A stretch of 57,323 bases of DNA from Candidatus Aenigmatarchaeota archaeon. GTDB lineage: Archaea; Aenigmatarchaeota; Aenigmatarchaeia; GW2011-AR5. Of this stretch, positions 3,260 through 22,278 are shown piece by piece. Where the stretch lies: positions 1 through 57,323 of the forward strand of contig JAZDNV010000030.1 in NCBI GenBank assembly GCA_043799385.1, in the 5' to 3' direction. A model generated the notes under the pieces. The model had not been told where the DNA came from, made no database searches, and saw only the letters and a program-made list of their open reading frames with translations. The translations under genes and the position numbers were made by a program. How positions within the stretch are numbered: position 1 is the first letter of the stretch; each line of letters begins with the position of its first letter.

Positions 3260-4398
3260 ATTCTTCCATTAGAGTTTCTTCCAGTCATAAAACTCGACTG
3301 ATGTGCCTCGTGCATTCTCTTTTCATTGTTTATGACTCCGGAGCATCTGATTCTTTTTCTAACATCATCTCTTAAAACATATTCATTGACATTATCTAAT
3401 TTTGATGCTACATCTGAATACCTCGGTATAAAATCCCTGAGCACGAGGAACTCTTTTTTCTCTGTTTTGAATGTCATGTCAGCAACCGTGAATATGACCT
3501 CACTGACGCCCAGATCAATCAATAGATCCACGGTTTCTTTCAGGAATTTATAATTCATACGGTTGATGATGACGTTAACAAAAACACGTTTGTCAAGTTC
3601 AGTGAGATTCCTTATGCCCTGCAAAGTCTGCTCGAAACTTCCAGGAACGCCGGTAATGCTATCGTGCGTCTCAGCAGTATGGCCGAACAGGTGAATTTGA
3701 AAGGCGTTGCAGAAATCTGACATCCTTTCTGCATAATCTTTGTAAGAAAGCATGCGGCCGTTGGTTTTCATGTAAATATTGCATAGACCAATCGACTGGG
3801 CGTAGCTTAGCAGTTCGAATATATCCTCGCGCAGCGTCGGCTCGCCGCCTGTTATATACAAAGAATCATACATGTTCTTAGCTATCTCTTCGAGCTCAGA
3901 AATCACTTCTCTCGTTGATTTGTTCCAGTCTCCTTTTCTCTCAAGATAGTTGCAGAATTTGCAGTTGTTGTTGCAGACGTTGCCTAATTTCAATGTCTTT
4001 ATATCATAGATAATATTGGCATTCGTGTAAAATGAACTTATCTCAAAATCAAGATGCTTTTTATAAAATATGCCGGTGCTGTATTTTGCTGCCTTCATTT
4101 TGGAATCGCTGCCAGCATATTCAGTGTCGTGGTACTGGTGGAAGCATACTGCATCCCTGCATAATTTGAATCTAAGACCGTTCCGTATTAATCTGTAGCC
4201 CCATTCGATATCCTCGAATCCCCATAGTATGAAATCAGGATCAAACGTAATGGCATTGCTCCTTATGATAGATATGTTGTTGGAGTGTGTTATCTGCCAA
4301 GCGTTTTGTAATTCATTCAAATCATCCCTGCAGCCGGAATATACTAACTCCCTAACATCGTCCATAGTCGGCACTCCGTCAAAATCATTTTTTTTCAA
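3238..4398 (-). CDS. C-terminal part of radical SAM/GT2 fusion (GT C-terminal subdomain plus radical SAM domain)
   Basis: WGFEDIEWGYRL, then CNNNCKFC, TGGEPTLR, KTNGRML. Lacks a good ATG start and continues the upstream ORF across an A8 tract. Confidence 0.75.
   Translation of the reverse strand: MKKNDFDGVPTMDDVRELVYSGCRDDLNELQNAWQITHSNNISIIRSNAITFDPDFILWGFEDIEWGYRLIRNGLRFKLCRDAVCFHQYHDTEYAGSDSKMKAAKYSTGIFYKKHLDFEISSFYTNANIIYDIKTLKLGNVCNNNCKFCNYLERKGDWNKSTREVISELEEIAKNMYDSLYITGGEPTLREDIFELLSYAQSIGLCNIYMKTNGRMLSYKDYAERMSDFCNAFQIHLFGHTAETHDSITGVPGSFEQTLQGIRNLTELDKRVFVNVIINRMNYKFLKETVDLLIDLGVSEVIFTVADMTFKTEKKEFLVLRDFIPRYSDVASKLDNVNEYVLRDDVRKRIRCSGVINNEKRMHEAHQSSFMTGRNSNGRIQRISRR
3533..3771. repeat. 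Intragenic duplication (partner 5088-5326) of radical SAM domain core
   Basis: About 239 nt, about 16 mismatches counted by eye. Confidence 0.9.
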
Positions 4399-6514
4399 CA
4401 GCTTTCGTTATCTCTCCAACATCTTCAAAGAGCTCTATTCTATAACCGATGGTAACGCAGTCATCGCATTCACGGTGAGTTCTCATGTGCTCTTCTATCA
4501 GGTTTGATGAAGCAATTATATCAGAGTCAATGAAGAGTATGACCTCGCCGCTCGCATTGCTTATGCCTATATTTCTCGCAGGGCCAGCTCGATTTCTTGG
4601 TGAATCCCTCTTGAAATCAACAGCACGCGGCCAATAGTAGTATTTCAGATTGCATGGAATATCAAGAGACTTTATCATCTCTTCGGTGCCATCATTAGAG
4701 CCGTCATCGACAACGATAATCTCATATTTATCCTTAGAATACATTTGATTGAATAACGAGATCAGGCAGTTCTTCAATAATTTCTTCCGATTGTGCGTTG
4801 GTATTATTACGCTAACATCCTTGCCGCCGGGCACTTTCAACTGATACCTCAATTCAGCGCTCTCAGGATCCAGGTCCAAATCTAGCGGCCTTCTTGAACT
4901 GAATGATTTTGTTCCAGAAGTAATCCTGATTCTATTCTGTCTGGCGAATATCATGGCGTCTTCTATGAATCGCGCTGCTCTAAGGGTATGCGGTATCATC
5001 CCGTAGAAGTTTTTATTCTCATATTCAAACGGCTCAGGATATGTAAAGATGACTTCATTTATACCCAGTCTCATCAGAAGTCCGATCGTTTCTTTCAGGA
5101 ATTTATAATTCATACGGTTGATGATGATGTTGACAAAAACACGTTTGTCAAGCTCAACAAGATTCCTTATACCCTGCAAAGTCTGCTCGAAACTTCCGTC
5201 AACGCCGGTAATGCAATCGTGCGTCTCAGCAGTATGGCCGAAAAGGTGGATTTGAAAGGCGTTGCAGAAATCTGACATCTTTTCTGCATAATCTTTGTAA
5301 GAAAGCATTCGTCCGTTGGTTTTCATATGGATTTCATACAACCCAAGATTCTGCGCATACTCAAGTATATCAAATATATCTTCTCTTATAGTAGGTTCGC
5401 CTCCTGTAAGAACTATGTTTGTATTCAAATCGTTTTTAGATGTGTCCTCCAGCTCTTCCATGATTTCTTTTGTCGATTTATTTATGATGCCCTTTCGCTC
5501 AATATACTTGCAGAATTTGCAGTTGTTGTTGCAGACGTTGCCTAATTTCAATGTTTTTGTATTCTCAGCCTGCATAGTATTTCTGTATATATAATTATAA
5601 CACGTTAGGACACATCCAGGACACCTGCCTTCTTTCGATAACTTTCTTACTTCATTGTGCTTTTCAGAATCCCATATATTCAGCAGGCTATCTTCCTTGA
5701 TGTTGCCTAGTTTATGCTCCTCTAGACTGAAACACGGGTAAATATTGCCGTCAGCTTCTATGACCATTGACTTATACAGAGCCGGACAGTCACAAACAGG
5801 CTCAACTTTCAAGCTGTTTTCAAAATATTCAGGAATCTTCATCATAAATTCCATAGGAGCTGTATACATTCTGTACTTTCTTATAAGATGAATGGTTTTG
5901 AAGAACTCTTTCCTGAATTTTGCAAAATCATTCGAATCAAGACTGAGCTTCTCGGTCATCGAATTGCTTACGCCCGGATACTGGCAATATGGCTGGAATA
6001 TCAATGACTCGACACCAAGCTCGTGTGCAAGCTCTACTATATCACACATATGCATGTAGTTTGGCTTCATTATGGTCATTGCCATTCCAGTCCTGACGCC
6101 ATACTTTCGCAGGTTCTTTATTCCGTTGACTGTACGATCATAAACACCCTTGCCACGAAAATAATCATGCACCTCCATAGGCCCGTCAAGAGAAACAGAA
6201 ACAGAATAAACGCCACTCTCGCGGAGTTTCTGCGCTACCTGCTCGGATATCAGAGTGCCGTTGGTGATGAGAACCATGTCGATGTTCAATTCATTGCCAT
6301 AAGCTATGATTTCATAGATATCCTTCCTCAGCAGTGGTTCGCCACCTGCCATAAAAATCGTTCCAAAGCCTAATCCGTGCAACTCATCGAGCATCTTCTT
6401 TACCTGCTCTGTTGTCATCTCTTCCCATTTGCGATTGGGTATGCCGCACATCCTGCAACGCAGGTTGCAGTTGGTGTTTATGTTGAATGACAATATCTTT
6501 TCTTTATTCATCAT
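4385..6514 (-). CDS. Radical SAM-SPASM + radical SAM + GT2 fusion, N-terminal part
   Basis: CNLRCRMC/GGEPLL; SPASM-like C..DGNIYPC..C..C; second CNNNCKFC; GT2 VSVIIPTHNR, VVDDGS, FIDSD. Confidence 0.85.
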   Translation of the reverse strand: MMNKEKILSFNINTNCNLRCRMCGIPNRKWEEMTTEQVKKMLDELHGLGFGTIFMAGGEPLLRKDIYEIIAYGNELNIDMVLITNGTLISEQVAQKLRESGVYSVSVSLDGPMEVHDYFRGKGVYDRTVNGIKNLRKYGVRTGMAMTIMKPNYMHMCDIVELAHELGVESLIFQPYCQYPGVSNSMTEKLSLDSNDFAKFRKEFFKTIHLIRKYRMYTAPMEFMMKIPEYFENSLKVEPVCDCPALYKSMVIEADGNIYPCFSLEEHKLGNIKEDSLLNIWDSEKHNEVRKLSKEGRCPGCVLTCYNYIYRNTMQAENTKTLKLGNVCNNNCKFCKYIERKGIINKSTKEIMEELEDTSKNDLNTNIVLTGGEPTIREDIFDILEYAQNLGLYEIHMKTNGRMLSYKDYAEKMSDFCNAFQIHLFGHTAETHDCITGVDGSFEQTLQGIRNLVELDKRVFVNIIINRMNYKFLKETIGLLMRLGINEVIFTYPEPFEYENKNFYGMIPHTLRAARFIEDAMIFARQNRIRITSGTKSFSSRRPLDLDLDPESAELRYQLKVPGGKDVSVIIPTHNRKKLLKNCLISLFNQMYSKDKYEIIVVDDGSNDGTEEMIKSLDIPCNLKYYYWPRAVDFKRDSPRNRAGPARNIGISNASGEVILFIDSDIIASSNLIEEHMRTHRECDDCVTIGYRIELFEDVGEITKAVEKK

Positions 6515-20622: not shown

Positions 20623-21390
20623 ATTTGTGACATTTTTCGGGTCAACGTTCTCATACACTGTCGCCCGGTCGCTTGCAAGGAGTATGCCAAAAACTGCGGA
20701 CGGATAGTTTATTGTAACGTTGTCGACGTTGACGTGCCTGTTCGCGGCCTGAAGCTTTGCGCGGAACCTCAGCAAAAATCCGTTGGTAGTGTTAAGCGAA
20801 ATCGTTTCATTCAGCCAAACGTTCTCTGTCGTGTCGCCGACAAGGCATTTGTATTCGCTCCACGACCCGCTGTAGAAATCTAGGCAGAGGTAGTCGCTTG
20901 ATGTCAGCGTGTCCTCTATGAACCAAGAAAATTTCAGCGTTGCGTTTTTTATGTTAATTGGATTTGCCATGGTCAGCGACGAGTCAGTTATTGGCCCTTC
21001 TGCCTCGGCTGAATAGGAGCCGTGTATCGCCCGCCTTGACGAGTATGACCATCTAGAGCCAAAGTTCCATAATGAATTGACGACTTCAAAGCTATCGTAG
21101 AATGATGTCACGCAGCTAACGGTCCTATTAACGAACAGATAATAGCCGATGCCAGCCAACCGCTGTTTGCTGAAATGTATAAAACCGTCTAAATTCTTGC
21201 TGGCGTCATCGCAGCTTGATTCTTCCAGTAATCTGTTCAGGTTATTTTTTATGTTGGAGAAATAGTAATCCTCGTTCACCATCGCTATTTCTGACGTATC
21301 GACTTCATAATAACCACGCAGCAGAACAGATATGGCCAGCAGAAACCCTGAAATTATCACTGCTGAAATAAGAAACCACTGACCCTTCAT
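20611..21390 (-). CDS. Pilin-like surface protein with class III signal peptide
   Basis: MKG/QWFLISAV plus hydrophobic helix; beta-sandwich-like insert. Confidence 0.55.
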   Translation of the reverse strand: MKGQWFLISAVIISGFLLAISVLLRGYYEVDTSEIAMVNEDYYFSNIKNNLNRLLEESSCDDASKNLDGFIHFSKQRLAGIGYYLFVNRTVSCVTSFYDSFEVVNSLWNFGSRWSYSSRRAIHGSYSAEAEGPITDSSLTMANPINIKNATLKFSWFIEDTLTSSDYLCLDFYSGSWSEYKCLVGDTTENVWLNETISLNTTNGFLLRFRAKLQAANRHVNVDNVTINYPSAVFGILLASDRATVYENVDPKNVTNLTI

Positions 21391-21686
21391 ACAATCACTA
21401 CCTGGGCGTGCGGCGTCTTTGATACATATAATATGTTATCCTCCTCGACGAATTTTTTCTTCAGCATCATTCCGATGATCTCTTTTCCAACCGCGTTCAC
21501 TATTGTCGCGGATTTTATCAGCTGCGTTGCTTCGTCCTCATCGCAGAGTTTTTCAGAATAAAAGTTTTCATCTATTATCAGTTGCAGGCCGTTGTCATTA
21601 AATTTTTTGCCCACGATGGAAGAGTCTGATATTGCTAGGAGTAGTTCTCCGCCCTGCTTGAACAATCTGTAGGAGAATTTTTTCAT
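21387..21686 (-). CDS. DUF424 family protein
   Basis: LLAISD..IVGKKF, FY, ATIVNAVG, PHAQ. Confidence 0.85.
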   Translation of the reverse strand: MKKFSYRLFKQGGELLLAISDSSIVGKKFNDNGLQLIIDENFYSEKLCDEDEATQLIKSATIVNAVGKEIIGMMLKKKFVEEDNILYVSKTPHAQVVIV

Positions 21687-21867
21687 TTTCAAAACCTCAG
21701 ATGAATTTCATTCCCTTGGGTTTTGAAAAGTCATTGTCAGATGACATTTTCAAAACACCTTATAAACTTCATTTATGGTGGCTTTGAAAAGAAGTCCGTA
21801 AGACTTCATTTTCAAAACACCATATGCCGTATAACTGTTTTGAATTGATATGCCACAATGGCATCTC
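21684..21867. repeat. Tandem array of three ~61-nt double-hairpin units
   Basis: CATTTTCAAAAC at 21684, 21745 and 21807, each paired with a downstream (G)TTTTGAA and followed by a short variable hairpin. Confidence 0.8.
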
Positions 21868-21876
21868 ATATATAAT

Positions 21877-22278
21877 CTATATCGTTTTGAGGTATCTTTT
21901 CGCGCCGCATGCCTCGCACTTCAGCTGCAACAATCGGTCATCTTTCTGCATTATCGTGTCCGGTTTGCCGCACTCTTCGCATAAAACGAATTCCTTTACG
22001 TATTCGGCTATCCTCTGGTTTATTAAATTCGTTGAGACTTTGCCCTGCAGTATCAGCTCTTCGCCGCGTGTGCTGCCAGGCACGGCTAGTTCTTTAAATA
22101 AAAATTTTGCCAGATGCTTTGGCTCTCTTCTCAACGTCTTTGCAATCTCGGAGAAATTCCTTATGAAAGTCTGGCGGCCGGTGAAAACGTCTGCTAGCGG
22201 AATCTCGAATCTTTCCTTTTTCGTCAGGTCCGGCAGGTTCTGCTTCGCTCGCTCCAGCAATTTTTTGTATTCTTCCAT
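21877..22278 (-). CDS. eif2b: Translation initiation factor aIF2 beta subunit
   Basis: ERFEIP, TFIRNF, LRREPKHL, CEECGKPDT, CEACGA. Confidence 0.96.
   Translation of the reverse strand: MEEYKKLLERAKQNLPDLTKKERFEIPLADVFTGRQTFIRNFSEIAKTLRREPKHLAKFLFKELAVPGSTRGEELILQGKVSTNLINQRIAEYVKEFVLCEECGKPDTIMQKDDRLLQLKCEACGAKRYLKTI

Follow-up and report, generated by a model that had tools for sequence, protein, structure and literature searches.

The window analysed here, a 57,323-nucleotide (nt) stretch of DNA from a Candidatus Aenigmatarchaeota archaeon, carries a tandem array of three double-hairpin units between its genes for aIF2-beta and a DUF424 protein, both of which are oriented leftwards (minus strand). 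The array consists of three units of about 62 nt, each combining a variable hairpin with a conserved TTCAAAAC/GTTTTGAA stem, and fills 21684-21869 of the minus strand. Read on the gene strand, which is its functional strand, it spans from an ATG at 21869-21867 to the DUF424 ATG at 21686-21684. The features of the locus, from the upstream gene to the downstream one, are:

21877..22278, minus strand: aIF2-beta gene, the upstream neighbour, from the list of open reading frames (ORFs); stop codon TAG at 21879-21877
21870..21876, minus strand: spacer ATTATAT, 7 nt, from the aIF2-beta stop to the first ATG of the array
21867..21869, minus strand: ATG of the 5' border, ATGA with the next base, presumed to be the original DUF424 start codon
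21807..21869, minus strand: unit 3, the 5'-most, of the 'T type'; covariance-model match 47.3 bits, predicted fold -17.6 kcal/mol
21745..21809, minus strand: unit 2; covariance-model match 37.0 bits, predicted fold -20.0 kcal/mol
21684..21747, minus strand: unit 1, adjoining the gene; covariance-model match 44.7 bits, predicted fold -19.0 kcal/mol
21750..21869, minus strand: short frame 1, 39 codons (MRCHCG...KVF), from the border ATG to a UGA 2 nt before the next ATG
21697..21747, minus strand: short frame 2, 16 codons (MSSDNDFSKPKGMKFI), whose closing UGA overlaps the Shine-Dalgarno (SD) motif, 10 nt before the DUF424 ATG
21387..21686, minus strand: DUF424 gene, the host gene 3' of the array; Pfam PF04242, E 1.6e-21, residues 11-97

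On the plus strand, the repeat CATTTTCAAAAC starts at 21684, 21745 and 21807, at spacings of 61 and 62 nt, and no further exact copy of it occurs in the window. The 'CAT' kept in every plus-strand repeat is an ATG on the gene strand, where each repeat reads GTTTTGAAAATG, and GAGG or GGTG precedes each of these ATGs at Shine-Dalgarno distance. Three inverted repeats span the array, TTTTCAAAACC/GGTTTTGAAAA (21686-96 / 21719-29), TTTTCAAA/TTTGAAAA (21747-54 / 21783-90) and TTCAAAACA/TGTTTTGAA (21811-19 / 21836-44), and four of the window's six exact TTTTSAAAA sites lie inside 21686-21817. Tandem Repeats Finder does not report the array because its units are merely 72-82% alike.

Each unit, folded singly, is predicted to form a double hairpin at the energy listed above, and none of 200 shuffles folds as well as the whole array (z -6.3 on the minus and -6.9 on the plus strand). 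In unit 3, hairpin A (ATGAGAT...ATATCA, arms 21846-55 / 21859-68) is followed by hairpin B, with arms TTCAAAACA and TGTTTTGAA at 21836-44 and 21811-19, the SD motif GGTG at 21818-21 and the ATG at 21809-21807. Unit 2 forms hairpin A from GAAGTC/GACTTC (21791-96 / 21802-07) and hairpin B from TTTCAAAG../..TTTTGAAA (21783-90 / 21747-54), the loop of which holds an inner hairpin and the SD motif GGTG (21756-59), and it ends in an ATG at 21747-21745. Unit 1 has GTCAT/ATGAC (21730-34 / 21741-45) as hairpin A and an 11-bp hairpin B (21719-29 / 21686-96) with the SD motif GAGG at 21695-98; its ATG, at 21686-21684, is the start codon of DUF424. An initial annotation, made from the letters of the DNA, had described three double-hairpin units with a period of 61-62 nt and short hairpins of differing sequence that keep their pairing. 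The repeat starts, the inverted repeats and the folding agree with that description, and the short hairpins GTCAT/ATGAC, GAAGTC/GACTTC and TGATATGCCA/TGGCATCTCA are all present. Its view of the array as non-coding, structured and part of the DUF424 leader is likewise correct.

Units of this kind are found at many other genes. The genome that contains the window (G000: 786 kb, 31 contigs, 43% G+C, 91% completeness) holds seven strong copies according to a covariance model of hairpin B and the ATG that was built from 33 copies. Units lie at C25:145839-145939 (two units), C11:25995 and C26:7009, and weaker ones on C21, C25 and C10. A tRNA scan of two degenerate C21 loci found none. The exact pattern TTCAAAAC-N8-30-GTTTTGAAAATG is present in 8 of 41 related genomes, whereas the reversed control pattern is present in none. 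At E<=1e-4 the covariance model matches 17 of the 70 genomes of the order and gives nothing in the other 53, with copy numbers of 49 (G001), 20 (G040), 8, 7 (the genome of the window), 4, 4, 3, 3, 3 and lower. In G001, the 5' motif ATGAGATGC occurs 57 times, against once for a control pattern. Among 151 genomes drawn evenly from the phylum three match at E<=1e-5, all from the same order, and at that threshold 131 genomes from other orders of the phylum give no match. The search of related genomes with a covariance model, proposed in the initial annotation, has thus returned a family.

Beyond assembled genomes, a scan of metagenome contigs yielded about 12 true members as judged by eye (L131, L133, L144, L186, L218, L227, L228, L236, L239, L240, L241 and L246), while most of the 119 loci found in that scan look like chance matches in which the family features are missing. 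The 22 pattern matches on viral contigs also look like chance because none has, on inspection, the hairpin A or the SD loop of the family. Several copies lie at contig ends (for instance G001:C114:1-41 and G005:C7:19-59), which would fit assemblies that break at the repeat. The literature search found no paper that describes this family. The array in the window consists of three different members, arranged head to tail, of a dispersed, modular and non-coding repeat family that, as far as sampled, is limited to one order of Candidatus Aenigmatarchaeota (DPANN archaea). It has the features of the generic class of dispersed modular palindromic repeat families, namely many unrelated loci, a modular build, conserved pairing and variable copy number. 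Within that class it is a new, order-restricted family of double-hairpin repeats that sit on start codons with their own ribosome site and ATG, outside every family tested.

A unit measures about 53-75 nt and runs, on the gene strand, from hairpin A through hairpin B to AA and ATG. Hairpin A has a sequence specific to the sub-family, and hairpin B consists of the conserved stem TTCAAAAC/GTTTTGAA around a variable loop ending in the Shine-Dalgarno motif GAGG or GGTG, so that every unit closes with the SD motif, TTTTGAAA and ATG. The predicted folds comprise two separate local hairpins, and the 5' and 3' ends of the unit do not pair with each other. Across the aligned copies 92.7% of the cells of hairpin B are paired, with four of its nine pairs changed on both sides (18 cells), a level reached by none of 500 shuffles and by none of the slid controls, all of which are lower. 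As judged from these alignments, hairpin B is maintained by compensatory change. For hairpin A, a best stem of at least 7 is found in 84 of 138 units versus 21 of 138 after shuffling, and in most of the units whose stem is clear, 0-4 nt separate its foot from hairpin B; on this comparison it varies in sequence yet stays a hairpin.

A related strain in a public run (X1) carries the same array on one 298-nt contig with eight differences. Six of these fall in hairpin A of unit 3, where one restores GAGAT and one is a double change from G:C to A:T. The public runs listed for the window comprise four of groundwater DNA, two of which hold small shares of it, and none of RNA; those with shares are labelled groundwater metagenomes. 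In G001, hairpin A of some T-type units (loci L356, L362 and L368-L370) has grown by nested imperfect palindromes to about 100-200 nt. The same genome has a variant of hairpin B (TTTCAAACACC...GGTGTTTAAAATG) that precedes other genes, and its gene for ribosomal protein S9 also has a unit (L359).

The 3' ends of the arrays coincide with start codons. After the surroundings of the hits were fetched and scored again, 105 distinct arrays were obtained (71 single, 29 double and 5 triple), and 96 of them end in a start codon: ATG in 93, GTG in two and TTG in one. Downstream ORFs of at least 50 codons that open at the array's 3' triplet, 63 in all, were scanned against Pfam. The genes recognized serve translation (EF-1alpha and ribosomal proteins S2, S8e in two genomes, S27e, L13 and L7Ae), RNA processing (Pop5, TruD, Rrp41 and the FttA KH domain), transcription and DNA (RNA polymerase subunits and topoisomerase VI A) and metabolism (argininosuccinate synthase (ArgG), ornithine carbamoyltransferase (OTCase), dCTP deaminase, epimerases, glycosyltransferases and transporters). 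Their Pfam domains start at residues 1-20, and the 3' ATG is therefore the true start codon; in the window, the DUF424 N-terminus MKKFSY aligns with MKFSY/MKFSF of relatives. By their domain assignments, the host genes are unrelated housekeeping genes and do not make up a functional set. An A follows the 3' ATG in 54 of 63 arrays, as opposed to 46% of the long ORFs in the genome of the window.

A few loci depart from this arrangement. At G000:C21:26905-26975 (L259) a two-unit array ends in ATC, and a 253-codon ORF opens at an ATG within the loop of the last unit, so the start of this gene may have moved into the element. At L009 (G027:C18), L236 and L017, a degenerate unit (AACTTGCTTGC..GCAAGCGCGTTCTTTCAAACA) lies 3' of the unit ATG. 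This degenerate unit shares the frame of S8e, and the Pfam domain of S8e does not begin until residue 28; at the S8e loci the protein may gain an N-terminal extension from the unit, or its true start may lie further downstream.

The 5' ends of the arrays also bear the marks of a gene start. Border counts were made on 43 arrays that begin with a T-type unit (ATGAGATGC...GCATCTCAA). As border codon, 41 of them have ATG, one has GTG and one has TTG. A co-oriented upstream ORF ends within -40..+6 of the border in 25 arrays, and in 12 the upstream TGA overlaps the border ATG as an ATGA stop/start overlap. An SD-like 4-mer lies at -17..-4 of the border in 13 of the 43 versus 6.1 +/- 2.1 in shuffled sequence (3 of 1000 shuffles reach 13), and 18 of the 43 have either such an SD-like motif or a TATA box at the proper distance, whereas among 3880 control ATGs the share is 13%. 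The two borders carry an identical 4-mer in 30 of 42 T-type arrays, ATGA/ATGA in 29 and GTGA/GTGA in one, and the homology among copies spans from the 5' ATG to the 3' ATG. Going by this sequence context, the 5' border appears to be an older gene start in its native surroundings, and the units appear to lie exactly between the original start codon of the gene and its second codon.

Relatives of the window illustrate the corresponding empty site. A tblastn search with aIF2-beta gave 207 relatives, the best matches being metagenome-assembled genomes of Candidatus Aenigmatarchaeota, and synteny of aIF2-beta and DUF424 is kept in 27 of 80 fetched loci. The element is absent from the junction of all 27. 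The two genes are separated by 7 nt in L031 and by about 1 nt in L035, L036, L038 and L039; other relatives have spacers of about 50, 170 and 275 nt of unrelated sequence. The distance in L031 from the stop to the DUF424 ATG is the same 7 nt that separate the aIF2-beta stop from the border ATG in the window. The simplest history suggested by this comparison is that DUF424 received a block of 183 nt between its ATG and the codon that follows. A second empty site was sought at the C25 oxidoreductase, whose orthologue was not found in 40 relatives at E<=1e-30. When locus L246 was compared with G001, the repeat alone matched and the flanks did not. Contigs from the groundwater DNA runs contain one related strain and show no junction, no empty allele and no transcript ends.

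The types of hairpin A and of the hairpin B loop behave as sub-family modules that are common to several genomes and have been recombined. Each unit of the window represents a type of its own: unit 1 has its nearest counterparts in the last C25 unit (the same type stands at G000:C25:145839-145888) and in a unit of G015, and the loop of unit 2 is closest to units of G015. Since the three have closer relatives elsewhere, no simple local triplication produced them. Array size differs between orthologous loci, with two units in L290 versus three in L186 and one in L295 versus two in L144, and some arrays contain identical 63-nt copies. Hairpin A copies the 5' end of the host gene in 3 of 78 arrays with at least 10/15 identities, versus 1% in the control, and on this count the idea that hairpin A is generally derived from the 5' end of its target gene is rejected. 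In L339 (G026:C48:7230-7332) and L343 (G005:C3), hairpin A starts with a copy of the first ~20 nt of the host gene, which in L339 is an Rrp41-like gene with an identical prefix of 17 nt. From these prefix copies it follows that some array growth duplicates the gene's 5' end, or that the gene start is rebuilt from the unit.

The most probable reading of the family is a very small insertion element, likely selfish, with ATG(A) as its landing site. The element would insert at ATG(A), or be duplicated there, and the original start codon would remain at the 5' border, usually as ATGA and often as a stop/start overlap with the upstream gene. New units would land on the ATG(A) that ends an older unit and so build tandem arrays, every unit offering at its own end the ATG(A) used as target and thereby allowing further growth. 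DNA inserted after a start codon would normally inactivate the gene; the SD-N8-ATG at the end of the unit would repair the damage. The element would persist only where it is harmless, its 3' end giving the gene a new ribosome site and a new ATG.

The reading frames of the units fit such a repair. Two of the three frames are closed within the unit, by the UGA in GUUUUGAAAAUG and by a loop UGA or UAA; initiation at the old start codon would therefore lead ribosomes to a stop close to the new ATG, where they could restart. In 38 of 43 arrays the frame of the border codon ends no later than the gene ATG, and the commonest single unit, of 65 nt, provides 20 codons, UGA, AA and AUG. In the window, the chain consists of the aIF2-beta stop, 7 nt, the 39-codon frame, 2 nt, the 16-codon frame, 10 nt and DUF424. 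The peptide of short frame 1 is not conserved among copies, and for this reason the frame is read as a relay frame and not as a gene. Short frame 2 has a counterpart in the C25 copy (MSSVNDFSKLKIMKFS) with replacement changes only, and the C21 copy is in a different frame. The mini-ORFs are thus rejected as genes, their peptides being unconserved and their frames varying among copies. In Haloferax, an experimental study reports termination-reinitiation at ATGA overlaps and close junctions, and a larger role for the SD motif in reinitiation than in de novo initiation (PMC6728339). Among 664 long ORFs of the genome of the window, the positions of TATA-like hexamers relative to the first ATG show a sharp peak at -31..-27, and an SD-like motif lies at -17..-4 in ~22% (peak -9..-12), a distribution that points to mostly leaderless transcripts. 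The 16S rRNA was sought for its anti-SD and is not in this assembly.

No mobilizing enzyme emerged from the candidates considered. Of five element-bearing relatives, G015 alone has a TnpA match above the cut-off and G005 alone a TnpB match above it; G027 has a weak TnpB match below the cut-off. G015 has two IS200/IS605-type Y1 transposase genes (G015:C10:17136-17495 and G015:C34:2452-2814; 85% identity over 661 nt), the only such genes among the five and unrelated to the hairpin units. The genome of the window encodes one 80-residue GIY-YIG gene (Ssn/YhbQ-like; G000:C13:3606-3846, L372:1477-1719, minus strand), which lies directly behind two tRNA-like genes carrying inserts and has no units nearby; single small GIY-YIG genes are present in 30 of 70 genomes of the order. 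A long coding copy of the element was not seen among the copies. Y1 TnpA, TnpB and GIY-YIG are rejected as movers since none is associated with the element.

Several observations weigh against an insertion element of this kind. Y1 TnpA (PF01797) and TnpB were not found in the 91% complete genome of the window, the TnpA loci of relatives are without element ends or motifs, the TnpA and TnpB loci there are unlinked to units, and GIY-YIG genes are present in 7 of 17 genomes with the element and in 23 of 53 without it, which is no association. Terminal inverted repeats are absent, the unit ends ATGAGATGC... and ...GTTTTGAAAATG not being inverted copies. For the ATG(A) at either border, a target duplication, a recombination core and simply shared or element-borne sequence are all conceivable origins, and 9 of the 105 arrays end in a triplet other than a start codon. 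The relatives with an empty site have at most 65% aIF2-beta identity, and no filled allele could be paired with an empty one at high nucleotide identity. Hairpin B is strongly conserved in sequence across four families, which could reflect a host function. Wobble pairs reveal no strand or RNA signal in hairpin B (33 GT/TG vs 26 AC/CA) or in hairpin A (11 vs 14). As for the relay, the border frame overruns the gene ATG by 41-89 nt in 4 of the 43 arrays and by 4 nt in one more, and the phase of single units is only weakly biased, so the relay counts as plausible at most. Finally, the counts are inflated by the inclusion of copies from related strains, which are not independent. With these points considered, it is a tentative proposal, possible but short of an even chance, that the units represent a new class of site-specific DPANN mobile element, targeting ATGA at starts and at stop/start overlaps, 'translationally transparent' in having its own SD and ATG and closing its own short frames, and moved by an unrecognised enzyme.

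The main rival explanation is that the units are cis-regulatory 5' leaders of the host, acting as a translational operator, an RNA thermometer or a site for an RNA-binding protein. The SD motif lies in or at the loop of hairpin B, with the spacer and the A of the AUG paired, and hairpin B has kept its stem with compensatory changes across four families. Arrays also offer mutually exclusive pairings: the array of the window could form a competing long hairpin composed of GTTTTGAAAA, a bulged U, a short hairpin and then TTTTCAAAAC. Many of the host genes belong to translation and transcription. In the most explicit form of this explanation, hairpin B would hide the spacer between SD and AUG, and the alternative pairings of tandem units (hairpin B versus the long hairpin) would switch the translation of a regulon. 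However, copy number ranges from 0 to 49 within one order, with most of its genomes (53/70) devoid of matches at E<=1e-4, the host genes vary by genome and span unrelated pathways, and the orthologous DUF424 junction of relatives is without the element. Identical tandem copies and strain-level differences in unit number resemble repeat dynamics, internal units retain an SD and ATG though no gene follows them, and there is no G-U excess on the gene strand. A regulatory leader is accordingly considered unlikely, and the switching regulon no less so.

A portable promoter cassette is less probable still, and little credence is given to it. Here, the TTCAAAAC motif and the AT-rich loop (AGAAGTTTATAAGG) would serve as BRE/TATA box and each unit would fire transcription, an attractive notion where just 7 nt between aIF2-beta and the array leave no room for a promoter, and where many loops have TTTATA or TTTATG after a purine-rich AGAAG. 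The reading fails because the geometry is about 10 nt off: the TTTATA of the unit starts at -19 (read from the alignment), too close to the ATG for the genome's peak at -31..-27. Moreover, several loop types have no TATA-like run (for example unit 1 of the window and the 3- to 6-nt loops in L309, L311 and L346), and the spacing of the half-sites, from 3 to more than 30 nt, is ill-suited to a fixed protein footprint.

The initial annotation had also inferred an array of small RNA genes, guide-like or processed into RNAs of about 60 nt, from the alternation of constant and variable parts, and strong predicted folds and conserved pairing are in keeping with it. This now appears very improbable. 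C/D box small RNAs carry RUGAUGA/CUGA boxes and H/ACA small RNAs carry ACA boxes, whereas no such box is kept between the three units. In Rfam, searched here at E<=10, the best matches to the window region have E 0.87-7.1, far under gathering scores, and seven other typical loci have no matches at E<=0.1. The comparison of the variable interiors with the genome, also suggested in the initial annotation, gave nothing beyond chance 13-15-mers; the interiors have no targets in their own genome and are modules shared within sub-families, and none of the 22 viral-contig matches has the family features. In addition, 71 of the 105 arrays are single units fused to a start codon. Its alternatives of a leader or a DNA structural site came nearer the mark, although they missed the dispersed family at start codons. 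Scarcely credible, lastly, is a neutral local tandem duplication of the 5' end of DUF424: unit 2 does resemble the first 30 nt of DUF424 with one 6-nt gap (by eye, no statistics) and the last unit copies the first ~20 nt of its gene in 2-3 of 78 arrays elsewhere (e.g. L339 and L343), but the three units are of three sub-types, each closer to copies at other loci or genomes than to the others, the pattern and covariance-model matches reveal a family with hundreds of copies, and instead of being absent from relatives and without other copies, as the initial annotation expected of neutral duplication, the units recur at other genes of the same genome and of some relatives.

Comparison with known systems places the family apart from each of them. 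CRISPR arrays have near-identical repeats of 23-47 nt and unique spacers, usually with cas genes and a leader. The conserved parts here are two half stems of 8-11 nt, and the 'spacers' are shared sub-family modules with no genome matches, so the initial annotation was right to call the array not CRISPR-like. Integron attC sites have R''/L''-L'/R' boxes with a GTTRRRY core, one site per cassette and an adjacent integrase; by this description of the core the GTTTTGA of the TTCAAAAC/GTTTTGAA arms misfits, and the units are scattered singly before housekeeping genes. The borders of archaeal bulge-helix-bulge (BHB) introns are joined in the fold that gives them their name, and in the predicted folds the two ends of a present unit do not pair with each other.

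BOX elements of Streptococcus pneumoniae and REP/BIME of Enterobacteria are short non-coding hairpin modules that vary in order and number and reach tens to hundreds of copies; REPs accompany the RAYT (Y1) transposase. Like them, the present units are modular, dispersed, hairpin-forming and located between co-oriented genes with which they can be transcribed. Unlike them, to which they have no sequence relation, the present units are fused to start codons, whereas BOX and REP are intergenic or 3' and have no SD and ATG; the Y1 transposase was, in contrast to REP, not found in the own genome. Descent from IS200/IS605 elements (PATE, REP/RAYT) is not indicated either, as PF01797 is absent from G000 and present in one of five element-bearing relatives, at loci without element motifs. 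MITEs (miniature inverted-repeat transposable elements), such as Correia/NEMIS of Neisseria, ERIC and RUP, are likewise small, non-autonomous, multi-copy, structured and patchy and able to alter the expression of neighbours. The present element differs from classical MITEs in lacking both terminal inverted repeats and a matching insertion sequence, in being limited to ATG(A) at gene starts and in having its own ribosome site and start codon.

Palindromic repeats can also persist because their insertion keeps the host gene working. Rickettsia palindromic elements (RPE) are selfish repeats of a reduced genome, placed in frame within coding regions and translated. The present units share this tolerance, but precede the coding region and would restart translation, although a few proximal units may be N-terminal extensions (S8e, L009). 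Mitochondrial double-hairpin elements (Allomyces) and repetitive hairpin-forming elements look mobile and inhabit compact genomes, and they resemble the present units in being built from two adjacent hairpins; unlike these, they are organellar, GC-rich or unrelated in sequence, and have no specificity for start codons. Hairpin repeats with oriented conserved flanks, in many copies clustered around genes, are described in work on Ssn (GIY-YIG) single-strand nucleases and their SRM/NTS repeats (Chenal et al. 2025, PMC11893778). The present family is similar in these respects; according to that work NTS repeats are not tied to start codons, and the GIY-YIG gene of G000 is not flanked by a unit and shows no co-occurrence with the family (7/17 vs 23/53).

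Two further repeats in this genome stand apart from the hairpin units. G000:C9:7100, C14:10056 and C21:11664 are gene starts of nearly identical sequence (GTTTAAAAAATGATGGACATCT...), with a strong TATA-like run upstream in every case; they may represent a multi-copy gene or perhaps a mobile element. Within the window, positions 3959-3982 and 5517-5540 contain the same 12-nt tandem (TTGCAGACGTTG x2) at a distance of 1558 nt, which hints at duplication of a segment or at paralogous genes.

For genome annotation, up to ~57 gene starts in a 0.9-Mb genome carry the element, and wrong starts, invented mini-ORFs and extended N-termini are possible at these genes. The patchy and strain-variable arrays could serve as markers for typing strains of uncultured Aenigmatarchaeota. 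They also offer a natural test bed for termination-reinitiation and for the use of SD motifs in a mostly leaderless archaeon. If the element moves, its specificity for ATGA would point to an unknown recombinase or nuclease. Selfish DNA may in this way persist even where a compact genome leaves hardly any intergenic room, by taking over the start codon and itself making good the damage.

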